A stretch of 29,022 bases of DNA from an uncultured Candidatus Saccharibacteria bacterium (lineage in GTDB: Bacteria; Patescibacteriota; Minisyncoccia; Portnoybacterales; UBA2143), in the NCBI GenBank assembly GCA_964346955.1, contig CAYFWT010000013.1, positions 1 through 29,022 on the forward strand, read 5' to 3'. Under the pieces are notes generated by a model, which was not told the DNA's origin, searched no databases, and saw only the letters and a program-made list of their open reading frames with translations. The stretch's first letter is position 1. Each line of letters begins with the position of its first letter. The position numbers and the translations under genes were made by a program. Below are positions 8,080 through 27,989 of the stretch, piece after piece.

Positions 8080-8100
8080 ATTTTTATGATAGCATGACTA

Positions 8101-8134
8101 ACTAGATATAAATAGGACACCATCTCTGGTGCCC
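8101..8134 (-). terminator. Probable rho-independent terminator after hsp20
   Basis: On the minus-strand RNA: GGGCACCA-GAGA-TGGTGTCC followed by UAUUUAUAU. It lies 26 nt downstream of the hsp20 stop. Confidence 0.45.
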
Positions 8135-8159
8135 TTATTCCATTTACTGTTGGTTGATT

Positions 8160-8782: not shown

Positions 8783-9538
8783 TTATATTTTACAAATAGC
8801 TTGTTGCTTTTTTAATCTCCGGAAGCAATAAGAAACTAGAAGAGCCATTATCACCAAAAGAAAAGCAATAACAGAAAGAAAAGTTATTCTTTGATAAAGG
8901 GCTTCTTGACTAAGAGCCGTGATGACAAGGTAATTATAGCAGCTATGGAAAATAATAGCAATAGTTAAACCAATTAAGATTAATTTTTTTCTCTGCTTAG
9001 CATAAAGCAAGCCTAAGGCGAGCCAATAACCAACAACGCCAGAGGCAAGGGCATGGACTAAAGTTGCCCCAAGAAAACGAAGGCCAATAGTGCTAAGAGC
9101 TTCTCCTAAAGGGGGCAAGGGGAATTTTAAAAGAATGAGTAAATTTTCCACTGCGGCAAAACCTAGGCCAGCTATAATACAGTATAGCATAGCATCAATT
9201 GGCTCGTCAAATTCAGGATTTCTAAGAACTCTAAATTTGACTACCGAATATTTTAAATATTCTTCGACTAAAGCAGGAATAAGAGTACTGGCTAAGATAA
9301 TTTTAAAGAAGTGGTCTCTAGTCATTTGGGATAAAAGAGATAAAGGGTTAAGGCTAGGATTAATAAACCAGATTAATATTATTTCTAAAATAATAGCTAA
9401 AGGAGCGAGAAGCATTCCCCAGATAAAGATTCTTAAAACCATCGAATTAGGTTCTGGATGAGCATCTTTTCTTAGATAAAAAGATAGCCAGATTATACTG
9501 GGCACAAAGCCGAGAATTATGTAAAAGGGATAGGACAT
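8783..9538 (-). CDS. PrsW-like intramembrane metalloprotease (CPBP/CAAX protease superfamily)
   Basis: Polytopic membrane protein with PrsW-type motifs: YLRKDAHPEP near the N-terminus, ALVEEYLKYS (EExxK), GFAAVENL (FxxxEN) and FHSCYNY. Confidence 0.6.
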   Translation of the reverse strand: MSYPFYIILGFVPSIIWLSFYLRKDAHPEPNSMVLRIFIWGMLLAPLAIILEIILIWFINPSLNPLSLLSQMTRDHFFKIILASTLIPALVEEYLKYSVVKFRVLRNPEFDEPIDAMLYCIIAGLGFAAVENLLILLKFPLPPLGEALSTIGLRFLGATLVHALASGVVGYWLALGLLYAKQRKKLILIGLTIAIIFHSCYNYLVITALSQEALYQRITFLSVIAFLLVIMALLVSYCFRRLKKQQAICKI

Positions 9539-9556
9539 AGAGCAAGAGATAGGAGA

Positions 9557-9724
9557 GAGTTCAGGGTAATCATTTCTCGAAGACGCAGCGGCCGTGACCT
9601 AATTTGTCTTCTTCTTATAATTTAAGCCGCTGCTCCGAGATGACAAAAGAGTTCTTTATTAGTACATCAAGCTAGCTGTTATCTTTTGTCATCTAGGCTT
9701 CTCGAAATGGCCACCCTGAACTCT
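9557..9724. repeat. 170 bp structured element with about 26 bp imperfect terminal inverted repeats and two internal hairpins (candidate ncRNA or MITE)
   Basis: Outer arms AGAGTTCAGGGTAATCATTTCTCGAAG (9557-9583) and CTTCTCGAAATGGCCACCCTGAACTCT (9698-9724). Inner hairpin 1: GCAGCGGC (9585-9592) / GCCGCTGC (9626-9633). Inner hairpin 2: GATGACAAAAG (9639-9649) / CTTTTGTCATC (9684-9694), perfect 11 bp. It lies between the valS stop (9741) and the prsW-like start (9538). Confidence 0.5.
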
Positions 9725-9740
9725 TTTCGACTCGGTTTCT

Positions 9741-11834
9741 TTATTCTGGCCAATCCTCAATCATCAGAAATTCCTTTTCCTTGAAAGGTAACTTTAAATA
9801 AATAGCTTCGGTAACAAAAGGCATAAAAGGATGAAGTAATTTTAAAGAATTCAATAAAACATAAGCCAAAACTTGTCTGGTTTGAGAAATATCTTGTTTT
9901 TTAGAAGCTTCAATATATTTGTCACAAAAATCGTGCCAGAAGAAATCATAGATTGAGTGAGCTGCTTGCCCAAAACGAAAATTCTCTAAGTCTTCGGTTG
10001 CTTTTCGAGTGGTTGTTTCCAATTGTTTAAGAATCTTTCTATCGGCTGGAGTGATTTTTGTTTGAAATTTGGAATTTGTAGTTTGTTTGTGATTTGTAAT
10101 TTGTAATTTGTTATTTCCGATTTGTCCTAAGACAAATCGGCTAGCATTCCATATTTTATTAGCAAACTTTTTCCCCATAACTATATTTTCTTCAGAGAAG
10201 CGGATATCCTGATTACCCAGAGCTTGATAAATCAAGCCAAAGCGAGTGGCATCGGCACCGTATTGGTTAACTAAGTCCATGGGGTCACGACCGGTACCTA
10301 AAGATTTACTCATTCGTTTTCCCTCCTTAGTTAAGATAGTAGCATGGATAATTACATCTTTAAAGGGTATTTTTTTAACTAATTCTAGCCCAGAAAAAAT
10401 CATCCGAGCTACCCAGAGATTGATAATATCTCGGGCAGTGACCAAGGTATCAGTGGGATAAAATTTCTTAAGATCACCAGTTGCCTTAGGCCAACCAAAA
10501 GTGGCCAAGGGCCATAAGGCTGAAGAAAACCAGGTGTCTAAAACATCATCAACTCCCTTAATTGGTATTTTATGTCCCCACCAAATTTGCCGAGAAATAC
10601 ACCAATCCTTGATATTATTTAGCCAGTCAAAATATACTTTTTCCCAACGCTTGGGATGAAATTTAATCTGGCCGCTTTTAACAGCTTTAATTGCCTGGGC
10701 GGCTAATTTATCCATTTTAAGAAACCATTGTTGACTAATTAGTGGCTCGATGTCGCTATGGCAGCGGTAGCAATGAGGAATTTGATGAGAATAATCTTCA
10801 GTTTTTTCTAAGAGGCCTTCTTTTTTTAACTCTTCGACGACCTTTTGACGGGCTTCTAAAACAGTTAAACTAGCAAATTTCTGGCCTGCCTGTTTAGTCA
10901 TTCGGCCCTTATCACTAATAACCTGAATCGAAGGCAGATTGTGCCTTGAGCCAATTTCTGCATCAGTTGGCGAATGGGCTGGAGTTACCTTGACTGCTCC
11001 GGTACCAAATTCTGGATCAACTAGTTGGTCAGTTACAATAGGAATTTCCCGATTAACCAAAGGTAAAATAGCTGTTTTTCCAATAAAATCTTTATACCTT
11101 TTGTCCTGTGAATGAACCGCCACCGCCGTATCGCCCAACATCGTTTCTGGTCTAGTGGTAGCTACCACAATATAATTTTTGATTTTTGGGTTTTGACTTT
11201 TGAGTTTGTATTTGATGTACCACAAATGACTCTTTTTCTCTTTGTATTCCAATTCCAAATCAGATAAACTGGTCTGGCATCTAGGGCACCAGTTAATTAC
11301 TTTTTCTCCCTGATAAATCCAACCCTTTTGATAATAATAAAGGAAGGCCGCCTTAACTGCTTCTTGATAGTCTTTATCCATGGTAAAGGCAGTCCGACTC
11401 CAATCGCAAGAGGCACCAAGTTTTTTTAGTTGTTCTAAAATTAAATGGCCATATTTCTTTTGCCAAGCCCAAACTTTTTCTAAGAATTTTTCTTTACCCA
11501 AATCGTAACGAGTCAACCCTTGTTTTTTCAGTTCTTTTTCGACCACGTTTTGAGTAGCAATGCCAGCATGATCAGTCCCCGGCAACCATAAAGTTCGATA
11601 ACCTTGCATCCGCTTTAGCCGGATTAAGATATCTTGGACAAAGGCATTGAGAGCATGACCCATGTGCAATTCGCCAGTAATATTGGGTGGGGGGATAGCA
11701 ATACTGTATTTTTTGGTTTTCTTTTCTCGGCTAATCGGTAGTTTGTCCGGATTAAAATAACCCGACCTTTCCCAGAGTCGGTAAATCCTATCTTCGTTGG
11801 CTTTTGGATTGTAGGTCTTAGGTAATTCTTTCAT
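9741..11834 (-). CDS. valS: Valine--tRNA ligase (short form without the C-terminal coiled-coil)
   Basis: HIGH motif PPPNITGELHMGHA and KMSKS motif KRMSKSLGT. The N-terminus MKELPKTYNPKANEDRIYRLWE aligns to E. coli ValRS MEKTYNPQDIEQPLYEHWE, so the ATG at 11834 is preferred over the track's TTG at 11852. It carries an in-frame repeat-derived segment (see 10061-10140). Confidence 0.9.
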   Translation of the reverse strand: MKELPKTYNPKANEDRIYRLWERSGYFNPDKLPISREKKTKKYSIAIPPPNITGELHMGHALNAFVQDILIRLKRMQGYRTLWLPGTDHAGIATQNVVEKELKKQGLTRYDLGKEKFLEKVWAWQKKYGHLILEQLKKLGASCDWSRTAFTMDKDYQEAVKAAFLYYYQKGWIYQGEKVINWCPRCQTSLSDLELEYKEKKSHLWYIKYKLKSQNPKIKNYIVVATTRPETMLGDTAVAVHSQDKRYKDFIGKTAILPLVNREIPIVTDQLVDPEFGTGAVKVTPAHSPTDAEIGSRHNLPSIQVISDKGRMTKQAGQKFASLTVLEARQKVVEELKKEGLLEKTEDYSHQIPHCYRCHSDIEPLISQQWFLKMDKLAAQAIKAVKSGQIKFHPKRWEKVYFDWLNNIKDWCISRQIWWGHKIPIKGVDDVLDTWFSSALWPLATFGWPKATGDLKKFYPTDTLVTARDIINLWVARMIFSGLELVKKIPFKDVIIHATILTKEGKRMSKSLGTGRDPMDLVNQYGADATRFGLIYQALGNQDIRFSEENIVMGKKFANKIWNASRFVLGQIGNNKLQITNHKQTTNSKFQTKITPADRKILKQLETTTRKATEDLENFRFGQAAHSIYDFFWHDFCDKYIEASKKQDISQTRQVLAYVLLNSLKLLHPFMPFVTEAIYLKLPFKEKEFLMIEDWPE
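10061..10140. repeat. Intragenic low-complexity repeat module plus a perfect 10 bp hairpin, inserted in-frame in valS
   Basis: TTTGAAATTTGGAATTTGTAGTTTGTTTGTGATTTGTAATTTGTAATTTGTTATTTCC is followed by CCGATTTGTC-CTAA-GACAAATCGG. It encodes ...QITNHKQTTNSKFQTKITPADRK... in the variable linker before the ADRxIL motif. It is the same motif family as the intergenic repeats at 21199-21313 and 22548-22640. Confidence 0.6.
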
Positions 11835-11961
11835 AAAGTATTCTCTGAGCAAGATCTGACGAAGTCAGGCCGCCTTGAAGGGCCCTAAGTGAAGCGGTCG
11901 CTCTAGGCGACCAGGGAGTTGAAGGGTAACTAGTATTTACTGTATAACAAAAATAATCTTT
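11835..11961 (-). promoter_or_regulatory. GC-rich structured 127 nt leader upstream of valS
   Basis: GC content is far above the local background. Hairpins include GGTCGC-TCTAG-GCGACC (11897-11913) and CTGAC-GAA-GTCAG (11856-11868). AGGGCCCT is a palindrome, and there are direct repeats GTTGAAGGG / CTTGAAGGG. Confidence 0.35.
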
Positions 11962-14074: not shown

Positions 14075-14099
14075 AATAGTTCGACAAGCTCACTATAAA
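14075..14099 (+). repeat. 25 bp exact repeat AATAGTTCGACAAGCTCACTATAAA (copy 1); its inverted partner is at 21271-21295
   Basis: Perfect 25/25 reverse-complement match to 21271-21295. Copy 1 starts 2 bp after tRNA-Glu and ends 6 bp before the GT2 start codon. It contains the internal inverted pentamers ATAGT ... ACTAT. Confidence 0.85.
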
Positions 14100-14105
14100 T
14101 TTTTT

Positions 14106-15677
14106 ATGCTCCCTAAGGAAAAGTATTATTTAAAGATAGGCAAGACAACTGATTTGAAAAGCCCGAAAGAAAGAATACTCTATCGGGCTTTTGAGCTTTT
14201 ACCAGGGACTTTAGCTTGGCTAACGCTTATCAGCGTTATTTTTTTATCTTGGCTTAAGCCAGTTTTGATAGCCCTTTTTATTATTGCCTTTGATGTCCAT
14301 TGGTTACTTAAAACTATTTATCTTTCTCTTCATTTAAGAGCCAGTTATTCTCAAATGAAAAAAAATTTGGCCATTGATTGGTTAGGGAAATTGAAATCTC
14401 TTCCTGGGAAAAATTGGCAGAATATCCATCACTTGGTTATCTTGCCAAGATATAAGGAGCCTTTGGAGGTGGTCCGAGCAACTTTCCAAGCGATTGCTAA
14501 TTCAGCCTATCCTAAAGATAAAATGATGGTTGTTTTAGCTATGGAAGAACGAACTATCGAGACAGGTAAAAAAGTAGCCCAAGCCATTGAAAAAGAATTT
14601 GGCAGTAAGTTCTATAAATTTCTGATTACCGTCCACCCCCAAGATATTATTGGGGAACTAGCTGGTAAGGGATCTAACTCTACTTGGGCAGCCAGACAAG
14701 TCAAAAAGGAGATCATTGACCCCTTAGGAATTCCTTACCAAGATATTATTGTTTCTTGTTTTGATATTGATACCCGGGTCTATCCTCAATATTTTTCTTG
14801 TTTAACTTATTATTATTTGACAGCCAAGAAACCAACTCAGTCTAGTTATCAACCAATTCCTATTTATAACAACAACATCTGGCGGGCGCCTTGTATTTCC
14901 CGGGTAGTGGCTACCTCAGGAACCTTTTGGCAAATGATGCAACAACAGCGGCCAGAACGACTTTCAACTTTTTCTTCTCAGTCGATTAGTTTTCAAACTT
15001 TAGTTGAAGTGGATTTTTGGCCAACCAATATGGTTTCCGAAGATTCCCGTATTTTCTGGCAAAATTTACTTTTTTATAATGGTAATTACCGAACTGTTCC
15101 TTTGTATTATCCGGTCTCCATGGATGCAAATCTAGCGCCCACTTTCTTTAAAACAGCTATCAATATTTACAAGCAACAGCGACGCTGGGGTTGGGGAGTA
15201 GAGAATATCCCCTTTTTGTTTTTCGGATTTTATAAAGATACTCAAGGTAAGATTCCTTGGCGAAAAAAACTCCGTTGGATTTTGATTCAATTAGAAGGTT
15301 TTTGGTCCTGGGCAACTAATGCTTTGCTTATATTTCTTTTAGGTTGGCTGCCTTTGTTTTTGGGTGGTCATAAATTTAACATCACTCTTTTATCTTATAA
15401 TTTGCCTCGAGTGACCCGAACTTTAATGACTTTAGCTATGGTTGGTTTAATTGGTTCGGCAATTTATAGCACTTTACTTTTACCTCGGCGGCCTAAAGAA
15501 TATGGCTTGATTAAGAACTTGTTTAAGGATTTAAGTATGGTTGTTCAATGGGTTTTACTGCCTTTCACCATTCTTATTTTTGGCTGCCTGCCTGGCTTAG
15601 ACAGCCAGACCAGATTAATGTTGGGTAAATATATGGGTTTTTGGGTCACTCCCAAGAAGGCAAGAAGCTACGGCTGA
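14106..15677 (+). CDS. Processive family-2 glycosyltransferase (cellulose/chitin/hyaluronan-synthase-like), integral membrane
   Basis: GT-A core with DxD-type CFDIDT and a QxxRW motif (QQRRWGWG). N-terminal and C-terminal TM helices are present. Confidence 0.7.
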   Translation: MLPKEKYYLKIGKTTDLKSPKERILYRAFELLPGTLAWLTLISVIFLSWLKPVLIALFIIAFDVHWLLKTIYLSLHLRASYSQMKKNLAIDWLGKLKSLPGKNWQNIHHLVILPRYKEPLEVVRATFQAIANSAYPKDKMMVVLAMEERTIETGKKVAQAIEKEFGSKFYKFLITVHPQDIIGELAGKGSNSTWAARQVKKEIIDPLGIPYQDIIVSCFDIDTRVYPQYFSCLTYYYLTAKKPTQSSYQPIPIYNNNIWRAPCISRVVATSGTFWQMMQQQRPERLSTFSSQSISFQTLVEVDFWPTNMVSEDSRIFWQNLLFYNGNYRTVPLYYPVSMDANLAPTFFKTAINIYKQQRRWGWGVENIPFLFFGFYKDTQGKIPWRKKLRWILIQLEGFWSWATNALLIFLLGWLPLFLGGHKFNITLLSYNLPRVTRTLMTLAMVGLIGSAIYSTLLLPRRPKEYGLIKNLFKDLSMVVQWVLLPFTILIFGCLPGLDSQTRLMLGKYMGFWVTPKKARSYG

Positions 15678-21190: not shown

Positions 21191-21198
21191 ATAGATAG

Positions 21199-21313
21199 AT
21201 TACAAATCCCAAATCACAAATCACAATCCTTCGACTCGGTCGTCTAAAGCGACCTCACTCAGGAAATAATTTTATAGTGAGCTTGTCGAACTATTGTTTG
21301 TAATTTGGAATTT
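21199..21313. repeat. Low-complexity inverted repeat (ATTACAAATCCCAAATCACAAATCACAA ... TTGTTTGTAATTTGGAATT) flanking a 67 bp core
   Basis: The arms lie at 21199-21226 and 21294-21313. The core contains the hairpin GGTCG-TCTAAA-GCGACC (21238-21255) and the 25 bp repeat copy 2 (21271-21295). Confidence 0.6.
21271..21295 (-). repeat. 25 bp exact repeat, inverted copy 2 (TTTATAGTGAGCTTGTCGAACTATT)
   Basis: Perfect reverse complement of 14075-14099. It lies 30 bp upstream of the pilN GTG start. Confidence 0.85.
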
Positions 21314-21324
21314 TATTTATTGAC

Positions 21325-22543: not shown

Positions 22544-22547
22544 TTAG

Positions 22548-22640
22548 GAAATCACAAACCACAAACCACAAATCACAAAACACAAACAGTTTGTAATTTG
22601 GAAATTGGAATTTGTTTGTAATTTGGTGCTTGTGATTTGG
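22548..22640. repeat. About 93 bp imperfect palindrome built from (CAAAYCACAAA)n / (TTTGTAATTTGG)n low-complexity units
   Basis: The left arm GAAATCACAAACCACAAACCACAAATCACAAAACACAAAC is nearly the reverse complement of the right arm GTTTGTAATTTGGAAATTGGAATTTGTTTGTAATTTGGTGCTTGTGATTTGG. Confidence 0.6.
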
Positions 22641-22720
22641 AATTTTATTTTACCGTGGCCTTTAGGCTCCGCTCTAAAGAATCCATACTTTTTCCTCAAG
22701 AAAGGAAACAGCAGAAGCTA

Positions 22721-25173: not shown

Positions 25174-25563
25174 ATGAAAAAGATATTAATTATTGAAGAT
25201 GATCCCTTTCTCAATGAAGTCTACGCCGCTAAGTTTAGCCAGAGTGGTTTTCAGACAGAAGTGGCTCTTGATGGCAAAAAAGGTATGGAGAAAATCAAAG
25301 CCGATAAGCCTGATTTGATTATTTTAGACATTGTTTTGCCTAAAATGGATGGTTTTGAATTATTAAAGAAAGTTAAAGAAGACTCAAAATTAAAAGAGAT
25401 TCCAATTGTTCTTTTAACTAATCTTGGTCAAAAAAATGAAGTAGAGAAGGGCTTAGCCTTGGGGGCTGATGACTATATTATTAAGGCTCATTTTACACCA
25501 ACAGCTATTGTTGCTAAAGTGAAAGAGATATTAAATCAAAAAAGAGCGAATAATAAACAATGA
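25174..25563 (+). CDS. Single-domain CheY-like response regulator (PilH/PilG-like)
   Basis: Receiver domain with acidic pocket EDD, phospho-acceptor D in LIILDIVLP, and T/K residues. Its stop overlaps the pilT start as ATGA. Confidence 0.85.
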   Translation: MKKILIIEDDPFLNEVYAAKFSQSGFQTEVALDGKKGMEKIKADKPDLIILDIVLPKMDGFELLKKVKEDSKLKEIPIVLLTNLGQKNEVEKGLALGADDYIIKAHFTPTAIVAKVKEILNQKRANNKQ

Positions 25564-26636
25564 ATACTGGACAATATAAAAAACAATTTGAAGAGATTCT
25601 AGACCTGGCTATAGAAAGGGGGGCGACTGATGTTCATCTTTCGGCTGGTCGGCCGCCAATTATTCGAATTAGTAGCCAATTGACTCCTTTAGCTAAAAGA
25701 CCAGTCTTAACTCCTCAAGATACCCAAGAATTAGGTTTTGCTCTTTTATCCGAGGAGCGAAAAGAACAATTCCTTAAACAAAAGGACATTGATTTATCTT
25801 TCACCTATAAAGATAAAGCTCGTTTCAGAGTAAATGTTTACCAGCAGGTGGGACGAATTAGTGTAGCTTTGCGTTTAATTCCAACTAAAATTAGAACTAT
25901 TGAAGAATTGCATTTGCCAGCTGTTTGCCACCAATTTGCCAGAGCGCCTCAAGGATTTTTTTTAGTGGTTGGTCCTTCTGGTCAGGGAAAGTCTACTGCT
26001 TTGGCCGCTTTAATTGATGAAATAAATCATACTCGTTATGACCATGTTATTACTATTGAGGACCCCATAGAATATCTGTTCGTTCAAGATAAATGTATTA
26101 TCGATCAAAGAGAAATAGGCGAGGATGTTTTGACCTTCCATCGAGGTTTGCGAGAGGTTTTCCGTCAGGACCCAGATGTGATTATGATTGGCGAGATGCG
26201 CGACCCGGAGACTATTAGTAGCGCGGTGACGGCGGCCGAGACTGGTCATTTAGTTTTAACTACCCTTCACACTAATACGGCCGCTCAGACTATTGATCGA
26301 ATTATCGATACTTTCCCTCCTCACCAGCAGAATCAGATTCGGATGCAGTTAGCAGCCACTATTTTAGGGATTCTTTCTCGTCGGTTAATCCCTTGCTTAA
26401 AAGGAGAGGTGATTAATGCAGTGGAGTTGATGATGGCCAATTCAGCTATTAGAAATTTAATTCGGGAAGGAAAAACCCACCAGATAGATATGATTATTGA
26501 AACCAGTTCAGGGGAAGGAATGATTTCTTTAAATCGTTCTTTAGCTAATTTAGTTACTCAAAAGTTAATTTCTTTAGAGAATGCCCAACGCCATTCGACT
26601 GATATTTCAGAACTGAGAATGTTACTTAAGAAATAA
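25560..26636 (+). CDS. pilT: Twitching motility ATPase PilT
   Basis: Walker A GPSGQGKST. PilT-type motifs (ITIEDPIEY, AAETGHLVLTTLHTN). Confidence 0.9.
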   Translation: MNTGQYKKQFEEILDLAIERGATDVHLSAGRPPIIRISSQLTPLAKRPVLTPQDTQELGFALLSEERKEQFLKQKDIDLSFTYKDKARFRVNVYQQVGRISVALRLIPTKIRTIEELHLPAVCHQFARAPQGFFLVVGPSGQGKSTALAALIDEINHTRYDHVITIEDPIEYLFVQDKCIIDQREIGEDVLTFHRGLREVFRQDPDVIMIGEMRDPETISSAVTAAETGHLVLTTLHTNTAAQTIDRIIDTFPPHQQNQIRMQLAATILGILSRRLIPCLKGEVINAVELMMANSAIRNLIREGKTHQIDMIIETSSGEGMISLNRSLANLVTQKLISLENAQRHSTDISELRMLLKK

Positions 26637-26653
26637 AGGGCTTGGCCTAAAAA

Positions 26654-26777
26654 TGACAGCAAGGCTGTCATCCTGAGGGCGAAGCCCGAAGGATCCCGTT
26701 CTATAACCACGAGATCCTTCGCTAATGCTCAGGATGACAATTTTGTTGCCAAATCAAAGATTTGGACAAAATTGTCA
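26654..26777 (+). promoter_or_regulatory. GC-rich spacer with three overlapping, mutually exclusive hairpins, ending at the pilC start
   Basis: H1: TGACAGC-AAG-GCTGTCA (26654-26670). H2: GTCATCCTGAG ... CGAAGGATC / GATCCTTCG ... CTCAGGATGAC (26667-26738), with an internal GGC-GAA-GCC. H3: TGACAATTTTGT-TGCCAAATC-AAA-GATTTGGACAAAATTGTCA (26735-26777). H1/H2 and H2/H3 share bases. Confidence 0.45.
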
Positions 26778-26783
26778 ATTGGC

Positions 26784-27989
26784 ATGCAATATAGTTATTT
26801 AGCCCGAACTCGTAAAGGAGAGATTCAAACTGGGACTGTCGAAGCTCCTAATCAATCAATGGCTCTTCAGATTCTGCAAGGTCGTAATTTGATAGTGATT
26901 AAGCTGGCTGCCATTGAGAAGGCGTCTCTTTTAAGTAGAAAGATTAAAATCTTTGAGCGGGTCAAACGCAAAGAGCTTTTTATCTTTTTTCGGCAGCTAG
27001 CTACTTTAGTAGAAGCCGACGTACCCTTAGTCCAGTCTTTAAGGTCTCTCGCCCAACAGGTGGAGGGTGGTTATTTTGGGGGGATTATTTGGGCAGTAGC
27101 TGATGATGTAGATGGGGGGGCACTTTTTTCTAAGGCCCTAGCTAGGTATCCTAAAATATTTTCTGAGTTTTGTGTAAATTTAATTAAATCAGGAGAGGTT
27201 TCTGGTCAACTTCAGGAAAGTCTAACTTATTTAGCCGACCACCTAGAGAAAGAGTATTCTATTATTTCCAGAGTCCGCCGGGCGATGATGTATCCAGCTT
27301 TTATTTTTATCACTTTTGCTATTGTTGGTATTTTAGTCATGGTCATGGTCATGCCTGGTTTGGCCTCTATATTAGAAGAGGCGGGTCAGGAATTGCCTTT
27401 GCCGACCCGAGTTCTTATCACGGTTAGCGAATTTATTAGAAGTCGAGGCTGGCTTCTTCTCATTGCCTTAATTATTTTAAGCATAGTCTTTTGGCGATAT
27501 TTAAACACAGAGATGGGTAGAGGCCAGTGGGACAGACTTAAATTAAAGTTACCTATTTTGGGAAATATTTTTCAAAAAACTTGTTTAGCTCGTTTAGCTG
27601 ATAGTTTGAATGCCTTAATTAAGGGCGGTGTTTCGATTATTCAAAGTTTAACTGTCGCCGGTCGGGTTATTGGCAATACTGTTTATCGAGATATTATTTT
27701 CCAAACCAGAGATGAAGTAAAAGTAGGTAAAAGCATTAGCTCTTCTTTAGAAAGATATGAGGAATTCCCACCTTTATTTTGCCAGATGATTAAAACCGGG
27801 GAACGGACAGGTAAATTAGATACTATTTTAGAAAAGTTGAGTATTTTTTATAATAGAGAAGTAGAGAATATCGTTGAGAATCTAAGTCAGTTAATCGAGC
27901 CTATCCTGATTGTTTGTTTAGGGATAGCGGTAAGTATTTTAGTTTTCGCTGTTTATATGCCTATTTATAATTTGGCTGGGAGTCTCTAG
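26784..27989 (+). CDS. pilC: Type IV pilus inner-membrane platform protein PilC (GspF family)
   Basis: Two T2SS-F domains and three TM segments. The ATG at 26784 (MQYSYLARTRKGE) is preferred over the track's TTG at 26772. Confidence 0.85.
   Translation: MQYSYLARTRKGEIQTGTVEAPNQSMALQILQGRNLIVIKLAAIEKASLLSRKIKIFERVKRKELFIFFRQLATLVEADVPLVQSLRSLAQQVEGGYFGGIIWAVADDVDGGALFSKALARYPKIFSEFCVNLIKSGEVSGQLQESLTYLADHLEKEYSIISRVRRAMMYPAFIFITFAIVGILVMVMVMPGLASILEEAGQELPLPTRVLITVSEFIRSRGWLLLIALIILSIVFWRYLNTEMGRGQWDRLKLKLPILGNIFQKTCLARLADSLNALIKGGVSIIQSLTVAGRVIGNTVYRDIIFQTRDEVKVGKSISSSLERYEEFPPLFCQMIKTGERTGKLDTILEKLSIFYNREVENIVENLSQLIEPILIVCLGIAVSILVFAVYMPIYNLAGSL

Follow-up and report, generated by a model that had tools for sequence, protein, structure and literature searches.

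Results

Gene context of the valS-prsW junction

The window analysed here, by which we mean the whole stretch of 29,022 nucleotides, is a complete NCBI contig from a Patescibacteria (CPR, Parcubacteria-type) genome and carries a minus-strand gene pair with valS as its upstream and prsW as its downstream member, both neighbours of the intervening spacer being on the minus strand. The valS gene (9741..11852) encodes a class I aminoacyl-tRNA synthetase of 703 aa, recognized by the Pfam models tRNA-synt_1 and Anticodon_1, and ends with a TAA at 9743-9741. The second gene (8783..9538, 251 aa) encodes a PrsW-family intramembrane protease (Pfam PF13367, E = 1.6e-31) and starts with the ATG at 9538-9536. 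The scanned ORFs of the window match housekeeping and pilus proteins in Pfam, and no transposase or recombinase was found among the Pfam-scanned ORFs of this 29-kb contig.

As relatives we took the 80 closest valS loci of species-representative genomes, all of them Patescibacteria (CPR) MAGs of the Parcubacteria type; in the best one, ValS is 81% identical at the protein level. A partial match to the anticodon domain in Pfam suggested a truncated valS, a possibility which was rejected: residues 6-703 are matched full-length in the 80 relatives, where 703 aa is a normal size, and, ValS being about 700 aa long in all these loci, the window gene is not truncated. In about 75 of the 80 genome loci prsW directly follows valS, with a spacer usually of 0-30 nt and often of 0-8 nt, and metagenome loci behave alike. 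Since the two genes normally abut, the 200-nt spacer of the window is exceptional.

Architecture and predicted folding of the element

The spacer contains an imperfect palindrome, at 9556-9724, with two perfect hairpins set within an outer stem of 27 nt. In gene sense, a linker of 16-17 nt (9725..9740, minus strand) separates the valS stop codon from the outer stem, and the spacer comparison found little conservation of it among relatives. The 5' arm, on the valS side (9698..9724, minus strand; AGAGTTCAGGGTGGCCATTTCGAGAAG), comes from an inverted-repeat call, and the 3' arm, on the prsW side (9556..9582, minus strand), from the same call and from the folds. According to the repeat finder, 81% of the 27 nt are Watson-Crick paired; when wobbles are also counted, by hand, 24 of 27 positions pair on the minus strand (two of them as G-U) and 23 of 27 on the plus strand. 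The original prediction, made from the letters of the window alone, had put this pairing at about 24 of 27, as we find; it had also placed the second arm correctly at 9698-9724, while the first, given as 9557-9583, lies at 9556-9582.

Inner hairpin A (9635..9697, minus strand), detected by both the repeat finder and the fold, has 13 perfect base pairs (9638-9650 / 9682-9694) and a 31-nt loop, and can be extended to 16-nt arms matching at 94% (9635-9650 / 9682-9697). It had been anticipated as a perfect hairpin of 11 bp at 9639-9649 / 9684-9694: the hairpin is there, its length had been underestimated. Inner hairpin B (9584..9634, minus strand), supported by the same two methods, coincides with the one foreseen, with 8 perfect base pairs (9585-9592 / 9626-9633) and a loop of 33 nt, which contains a conserved AT-rich block, TTAAATTATA. 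The outer stem is followed, on the prsW side, by a pyrimidine-rich linker of about 17 nt that leads to the ATG (9539..9555, minus strand; TCTCCTATCTCTTGCTCT), in which no Shine-Dalgarno-like purine run is found. The element thus ends 18 nt before the ATG at 9538-9536, rather than 13 nt as previously stated.

Both strands are predicted to fold, as RNA, into a three-way junction, with a free energy of -69.6 kcal/mol (z = -6.3) for the minus and -74.7 kcal/mol (z = -7.2) for the plus strand; under DNA parameters the z score is -6.8. Each of the three folds was compared with 200 shuffles, none of which equalled the real one in any case, indicating a stability far beyond chance; the folding suggested along with the original prediction thus turns out in its favour on either strand. 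Small ORFs within the element are limited to TTG-started ones of 23-32 aa, without support.

Strand preference and promoter-like signals

Relative to the genes, positions which wobble only in sense and those which wobble only in antisense are balanced, and the fold energies of the two strands of the window element are nearly equal. A related group of elements described below, the sister type, was evaluated in its own frame: G-U pairs occupy 8-10 cells, versus 3 for A-C, and the fold equals or exceeds that of the complement by 0.5-13 kcal/mol in all three species. This lean is a weak hint of a strand-specific RNA, which inversion would disrupt.

A consensus scan located a putative promoter-like signal, GTGACC-16 nt-TATAAT, in loop B (9594..9621, plus strand), directed away from prsW and antisense to valS. 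The alignment with the related locus L171 shows both hexamers and their spacing kept (GTGACT-16-TATAAT), with a different spacer sequence. A weaker putative signal, TTGTCA-16 nt-TAAATT (9619..9646, minus strand; 9/12 matches), is directed toward prsW in the same scan. No sigma-70-like promoter was found in or around sister-type elements: the family as a whole thus does not share an internal promoter, and read-through transcription is the simplest assumption.

Comparison with known classes

The Rfam and Infernal search proposed with the original prediction matched no family. At gathering thresholds, Rfam 15 recognized five tRNAs only in the whole 29-kb window, with no match at the element; when the region 9400-9900 was searched with E up to 10, only sub-threshold chance matches to single hairpins were obtained. 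No intrinsic terminators, defined as a short GC-rich hairpin with a small loop and a U tract after it, were found in 9300-10000. Nor does the element match any known terminator or attenuator class; such a match is what the original prediction had indicated as adverse to it. Ordinary hairpin-plus-U sites are present elsewhere in the contig, as downstream of hsp20.

A T-box or riboswitch was rejected on account of the element's position, downstream of valS, and of the length of its closing helix, 24-27 bp; attC, dif and 6S-like candidates were dropped upon inspection of the sequence, there being no R'/R'' boxes, central bubble or integrase. In the literature on intergenic hairpins, MITEs and structured RNAs of CPR/Parcubacteria, no description of such elements was found. 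This is a real, conserved, single-locus element, present in neither Rfam nor the literature searched; it can be placed among the intercistronic palindromic or structured elements, a known kind.

Homologues at the same junction

In the ValS tree the window falls within a small clade, many members of which carry a long hairpin exactly at the valS-prsW junction. Sister-type elements are found in L009 and L083 (spacers of 158 nt), in L177 and L178 (165 nt) and, inverted, in L004 (174 nt). L005 features a long hairpin in a 99-nt spacer and L003 a stem-only hairpin of about 50 nt in a 69-nt one, while L006 and L176 carry long palindromes with different arms. L002, L084 and L173, with spacers of 2-3 nt, and L169, with 16 nt, contain no element, which is therefore dispensable.

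The outer arms of the window, including the one on the valS side, can be aligned with those of L003, L004, L005, L007 and L009, and by eye the alignment features a common pattern, roughly AAGGnTTYGGnTAAT...CTTTYAGC. Several arm columns hold two or three different Watson-Crick pairs, so that both arms change together. The spacer comparison in relatives, suggested from the start, has thus yielded homologous elements, remnants and stem-only forms, all at the same junction. In distant Parcubacteria the valS-prsW junction is often filled by unrelated hairpins made of heptamer repeats.

Elements with the window's own interior were found in two partial contigs, L170 and L171, identified through PrsW homologues closer to the window. 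In L171 (PrsW 86%) the whole element is matched, at 82% over 175 nt and in the same orientation; in L170 (PrsW 85%) it is matched as the reverse complement, the pyrimidine-rich flank on the prsW side being collinear. Both L171 and the flipped L170 have a counterpart homologous to the 9539..9555 linker, which must thus lie outside the inverted segment.

Window-type and sister-type elements have little in common beyond arms and architecture. A sister-type (type-2) covariance model, built from L009, L083, L177 and L004, matched only its own training set under default filters. With filters off, the window element ranks first in the window, with 27.2 bits and E ~1e-4 on the minus strand, in a match that aligns all three helices, versus 12.7 bits on the plus strand; since ordinary long hairpins elsewhere score 20-26 bits, this match is only weak evidence of homology.

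Inversion, loss and probable growth in place

Two of six species carry the element in flipped orientation, one for each type. In the sister type, L004 is 75% identical to L009 and L177 as reverse complement and 58% when compared directly, and the sister-type model matches it on the opposite strand (146 vs 41 bits). In the window type, L170 is 72-77% identical to the window and L171 as reverse complement, against 58% directly, and matches the reverse complement of L171's valS-side arm at 16 of 16 positions. Judged by these alignments, two independent flips of the segment between the arms have occurred in place among the six species. Faster decay was not seen in either flipped copy. One asymmetric site of the outer stem (5' T / 3' C), identified by hand, is common to L177 and L004, the inner parts of the arms being swapped; this hints at inversion breakpoints inside the arms, the repeats of the element having possibly recombined with each other or served for template switching. 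Where a species is represented by two samples, these agree in orientation: L009 with L083, L177 with L178, and the window with L001.

Partial forms are found at the same junction. In L007, a close sister of L004, the left flank is intact but the left arm stops after about 14 nt, where the ATG follows at once, and to judge from the alignment this spacer is a deletion remnant. The 16-nt spacer of L169 includes AACCTTTAA, the same letters with which the 3' arm of L177 terminates, and may be a second such remnant. In the more distant L017, a 6-bp mini-hairpin, AAGGTC-CG-GACCTT, occupies the same place. The junction thus offers a size series running from a 6-bp mini-hairpin through a stem-only hairpin of about 50 nt to branched forms of 145-210 nt. 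Taken together, the L017 mini-hairpin, the stem-only L003 and the remnants suggest a hairpin which has grown from its tip in place, and has sometimes been lost, rather than having been inserted.

Sequence constraint and covariation

The element is more conserved than its surroundings. Identity between the window and L171 is 82% within the element, versus 69% at four-fold sites of prsW, and 51% in the neighbouring prsW-hsp20 spacer. In the sister type, the corresponding values for element and four-fold sites are 78% versus 49% between L009 and L177, and 75% versus 46% between L009 and L004. Sequence and pairing of the element are kept well above the neutral level. Divergence of the element tracks that of the host, and vertical descent under purifying selection therefore fits better than recent spread.

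In the sister type (L009/L083/L177/L004), RNAalifold finds compensatory double changes at 10 of 53 predicted pairs, inner hairpins included, with few broken cells. In the window-L171 comparison, which involves two sequences, 1 of 48 pairs is compensatory and 95% of cells are paired, four being broken in L171. The arms of hairpin A are identical in L171, the compensatory change, from C-G to U-A, falling in the pair just below them, and two pairs of hairpin B are broken. Base pairs are kept via compensatory change, in a small sample and in a way that makes RNA-level and DNA-level pairing indistinguishable here. The original prediction had named the lack of covariation in homologous spacers, for a single-copy element with no transcript, as an outcome that would tell against it; conservation and covariation are both seen there.

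Paired positions are more conserved than unpaired ones between the window and L171 (89% vs 76%, Fisher p = 0.025). In the sister type, unpaired columns are conserved at about 75%, like the paired ones, which a function of the helix alone would leave unexplained.

Copy number

Within the 29-kb contig the arms occur only once, whether exact arms, arms with 3 mismatches or window-wide repeats were searched. Likewise, about 1.2 Mb of related loci, searched with blastn of six elements, an arm HMM and the covariance model, contain no further copies beyond the elements themselves. This search covered about 1-4% of each genome, and about 90 kb from element-bearing genomes; from the latter figure, and assuming a genome of about 0.8 Mb, our own Poisson estimate makes at least 25 copies per genome unlikely. 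In the window and in L004, L009 and L177, no target-site duplication is seen on either side of the arms, and the flanks are instead partly complementary to each other. Four arm-pattern scans of viral contigs gave chance-level, single-arm or unrelated matches, or none.

Discussion

In this work we describe a structured element lying between valS and prsW, two genes which in related Patescibacteria usually abut. It is best explained as an imperfect palindrome, about 170 nt long, which is confined to a single locus, has been inherited vertically and is predicted to fold into a three-way junction. Homologues, remnants and stem-only forms at one junction speak for vertical descent and growth in place.

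As to function, we tentatively prefer to view the element as a hairpin which has grown in place and is kept by selection, and whose double-stranded RNA would serve the processing or the stability of the valS-prsW mRNA that contains it. The element would be transcribed within this mRNA, and its long, nearly perfect helix would form a double-stranded module serving as an RNase III-type cleavage site, as a barrier to 3'-exonucleases, or both; either action would uncouple expression of prsW from that of valS, a housekeeping gene. RNase III acts on helices from about 20 bp upwards, and stem-loops between cistrons are known to stabilise the mRNA upstream of them, examples being REP elements and malE-malF. 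In all full-size members the outer helix is predicted to span 24-27 bp, with small internal loops, which places it within the range of an RNase III substrate, roughly two turns (20 bp or more) of double-stranded RNA. A flipped palindrome forms the mirror-image helix, and a function of this kind would therefore survive inversion. Conserved unpaired columns, unbiased wobbles, nearly equal fold energies of the two strands of the window element, the slight lean of the sister type to one strand, and dispensability in close relatives are points against a double-stranded RNA module.

The original prediction had also considered a cis-regulatory RNA or a small ncRNA. Its view of a structured non-coding element has held, while a strand-specific reading is complicated: such an RNA should keep a fixed orientation and confine G-U pairs to the transcribed strand, and we find two of six species flipped and the wobbles balanced. 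A related alternative, which we regard as rather unlikely, is an independent or excised structured ncRNA of a new family, a three-way junction with a long closing stem, which would act in trans or bind a protein and for which the valS-prsW spacer would be no more than a location; its flipped copies would be recent and possibly disabled. Sister-type elements offer several arguments in its favour, namely unpaired columns that equal the paired ones in conservation (about 75%, neutral sites being at about 50%), 10 pairs out of 53 with compensatory changes, and, in their own frame, an excess of G-U over A-C with a fold equal to or better than the complement by 0.5-13 kcal/mol in all three species. 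The covariance model, moreover, scores the minus strand of the window element much higher than the plus strand (27.2 vs 12.7 bits), and loss of the element in L007, sister genome of the flipped L004, would fit a loss of function after the flip. However, Rfam offers no family for it even with E relaxed to 10, the element is not framed by a promoter and a terminator, the copies in opposite orientation in two of six species do not decay faster, several close relatives lack the element altogether, and the two types share little besides arms and architecture.

Inversion also brings to mind an invertible DNA switch, or inverton, in which the 27-bp repeats would be recombination sites and flipping of the core, about 115 bp, would re-aim a promoter toward or away from prsW. 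Inverted repeats do surround a short segment just upstream of a gene, both orientations occur between related species in both element types with collinear flanks, and the asymmetric outer-stem site of L177 and L004 suggests breakpoints inside the arms; in the window type, GTGACC-16-TATAAT is kept in L171, and the orientation of the flipped L170 would make it face prsW. We nonetheless consider a switch improbable: the sister type is GC-rich and devoid of sigma-70-like promoters, L003 and L017 consist of a stem only, with nothing to invert, the 29-kb contig has no recombinase gene, and orientation does not vary between samples of one species. In chloroplast spacers, besides, hairpin loops between inverted repeats undergo small inversions, spontaneous and recurrent, which are not switches (Kelchner & Wendel 1996 and Kim & Lee 2005, listed as references 17-18 in PMC7393888).

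The suggestion of a MITE-like insertion, also part of the original prediction, was not supported: the 29-kb contig has a single copy, about 1.2 Mb of related loci gave no arm matches beyond the elements themselves, and neither a target-site duplication nor a nearby transposase was found. In its broader form, a MITE or a REP/ERIC-like mobile palindromic repeat inserted in the valS-prsW spacer, possibly repeatedly and in either orientation, this explanation has little probability. It would account for terminal inverted repeats of about 27 nt, for presence of the element in some close relatives and absence from others, for the occurrence of both orientations and for the 2-3-nt spacers of L002, L084 and L173, which look like empty sites. 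Conservation above that of neutral DNA also speaks for it, the same being reported for ERIC sequences. Against it, no further copy of arms or core was found in the contig or the related loci searched, a result compatible with a few copies per genome; neither a target-site duplication nor, in the contig, a transposase is found. The flanks outside the arms are homologous in flipped and unflipped copies, L007 and L169 resemble deletion remnants rather than empty sites, divergence of the element scales with that of the host, the presence at one site of forms graded from a bare stem to the full size suggests growth in place, and arm-pattern matches in viral contigs stay at chance level, without a partner arm.

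Least probable of all is a functionless palindrome whose self-complementarity is kept by template switching or arm-to-arm gene conversion and not by selection, a view which agrees with wobbles free of strand bias, arm mismatches that are mostly transitions, dispensability in close relatives, proneness to inversion and deletion, and the many unrelated hairpins at this junction in distant Parcubacteria, but not with loops and junctions, beyond the reach of arm conversion, being conserved at about 75% (versus about 50% at four-fold sites and 51% in the spacer), nor with compensatory changes in the inner hairpins too.

Several known systems share features with the valS-prsW element. The proteobacterial ERIC/IRU, REP/BIME and Correia sequences are likewise imperfect palindromes, here of about 130-170 nt, with an intergenic or intercistronic location, either orientation and a patchy distribution among relatives; they too are unusually conserved non-coding DNA, expected to act through RNA hairpins on mRNA stability or on processing by RNase III or RNase E. 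Unlike these families, which feature many copies of one consensus, the window element has one copy in the sequence searched and is always found at the same junction. RNase III processing stems and the intervening sequences of 23S rRNA also have a closing helix of at least 20 bp and a variable interior, and lie sporadically between functional units; the present element differs in being located in an mRNA spacer, not in rRNA, in having an interior conserved within each sub-type, and in that its cleavage is a prediction.

With fimS, hin and the invertons of the gut microbiome the element shares repeats flanking 100-200 bp upstream of a gene, both orientations and, in the window type, promoter-like hexamers. 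In contrast to them, opposite orientations are seen only between species, the sister type is promoterless, there is no recombinase gene in the vicinity, and the repeats belong to a much longer helix. In the minute inversions of chloroplasts, too, a segment between short hairpin-forming repeats flips recurrently while its flanks stay fixed; those segments measure a few to tens of nt and are treated as neutral, whereas the flipped core is here about 115 nt long, structured and conserved. Finally, a closing helix with two hairpins is also found in riboswitch aptamers, Y RNA/YrlA and hammerhead RNAs, from which the element differs in having no Rfam match, a closing helix whose 24-27 bp make it far too stable to switch as a P1 stem does, loops of 31-33 nt, and no fixed orientation relative to the genes.

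Intercistronic palindromes are not limited to this junction. Four more are found in the same contig, at 26637-26771 (-57 kcal/mol, z = -6.3), 21191-21324 (z = -4.5), 1339-1479 (z = -3.1) and 22544-22650; they consist of a long closing stem with inner hairpins, and their sequences are unrelated to the valS-prsW element. Related loci also contain long unique hairpins. Palindromes being present in contig and relatives with no common sequence, the element described here appears as one well-conserved instance of a wider habit. A more far-reaching interpretation, to which we give only a small chance, is that such elements make up an undescribed Patescibacteria family of conserved, self-inverting three-way junctions, either a new class of structured RNA under purifying selection or a DNA switch operating in place, within a wider habit of intercistronic palindromes. 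If the DNA-switch version were true, flips would reprogram how a membrane protease is expressed and also transcription into valS in the antisense direction.

Patescibacteria genomes are very small and gene-dense, and little is known of how these organisms regulate their genes or use RNA. In such a genome, a selected non-coding insert of 170 nt between genes that otherwise abut is costly space. The locus provides a concrete, single-site example of a conserved palindrome that has been inverted in place more than once. Should the element be an RNA processing or stability module, it would show how Patescibacteria uncouple genes within operons; should it be a flipping switch or a new class of RNA, it would add a regulatory device to a phylum with almost none described.

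Large palindromes in the contig

A second large palindrome lies between the ORFs at 25560-26636 and 26772-27989, occupying positions 26637-26771 (+ strand), and consists of three small hairpins held within a closing stem (…GGCTGTCATCCTGAG / CTCAGGATGACA…) some 20 bp long. Its predicted fold has an energy of -57.4 kcal/mol (z = -6.3), and none of 200 shuffled sequences was equally stable. The architecture is the same as that of the valS-prsW element, but the two sequences are unrelated.

Three independent, short-read Logan contigs which carry prsW all end within the valS-prsW element: in loop B for L001, from the same species as the window, in loop A for L170, where the element is inverted, and in the valS-side arm for L171, where it has the orientation of the window. 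Low coverage, the difficulty of assembling a palindrome, or the presence of mixed orientations in the sample could each produce such ends.

Heptamer-repeat hairpins

Three further intercistronic hairpins, all on the + strand, have arms made of heptamer-like repeats, ACAAATC/ACAAATT or AATTTTC/AATTGAA: 21191-21324 (fold z = -4.5), 22544-22650 (z = -1.9) and 1339-1479 (z = -3.1); two of the three are contained in the pilM-pilO-pilB gene cluster. In distant Parcubacteria (L011, L077, L091, L094, L104, L107, L110, L130 and L146), the spacer between valS and prsW is filled by similar heptamer-repeat hairpins, and the whole group looks like a widespread repeat type, of which we found no description.

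A heptamer repeat of the same kind (ACAAATTACAAATTACAAATCACAAAC…) is also found, in frame, within valS (10061-10119, - strand, coding). Its translation, GNNKLQITNHKQTTNSKFQTKI, is a low-complexity insert that separates the catalytic from the anticodon-binding part of the protein, which suggests that this coding region has absorbed intergenic-type repeat DNA.

Candidate signals for leaderless mRNAs

A 31-nt sequence, AATAGTTCGACAAGCTCACTATAAATTTTTT, is present in two copies of inverted orientation, 94% identical. The copy at 14075-14105 immediately follows tRNA-Glu and reaches as far as the start codon (ATG) of the ORF 14106-15677; that at 21265-21295 sits within the hairpin element 21191-21324. 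The sequence, laid out as TATAAA, six T, then ATG, may be a shared promoter for a leaderless mRNA.

The hsp20-vanW spacer (8080-8159, - strand), compared with its L170 counterpart (1478-1558), features a hairpin-plus-U terminator of the ordinary type, after which a conserved block, TCATGCTATCATAAAAAT, extends to the vanW ATG. This arrangement suggests a candidate -10 box positioned so that the mRNA would have no leader or a very short one. In this region, Shine-Dalgarno-like sequences seem to be scarce upstream of the genes.

Other hairpins in related loci

Long, nearly perfect hairpins, of up to 27 bp, occur elsewhere in the loci of two close relatives, L007 (3253-3320) and L003 (576-633, 1879-1936 and 6590-6662). 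Every one has a unique sequence, and the covariance model, built from sister-type elements, matched them through their stems alone.

In the valS-prsW spacers of L005, L031, L097 and L100, several unrelated hairpins are capped, on the gene-sense strand, by C(UUCG)G tetraloops. This tetraloop is an RNA-specific stability motif and suggests that, for at least these spacer hairpins, selection acts on the RNA.
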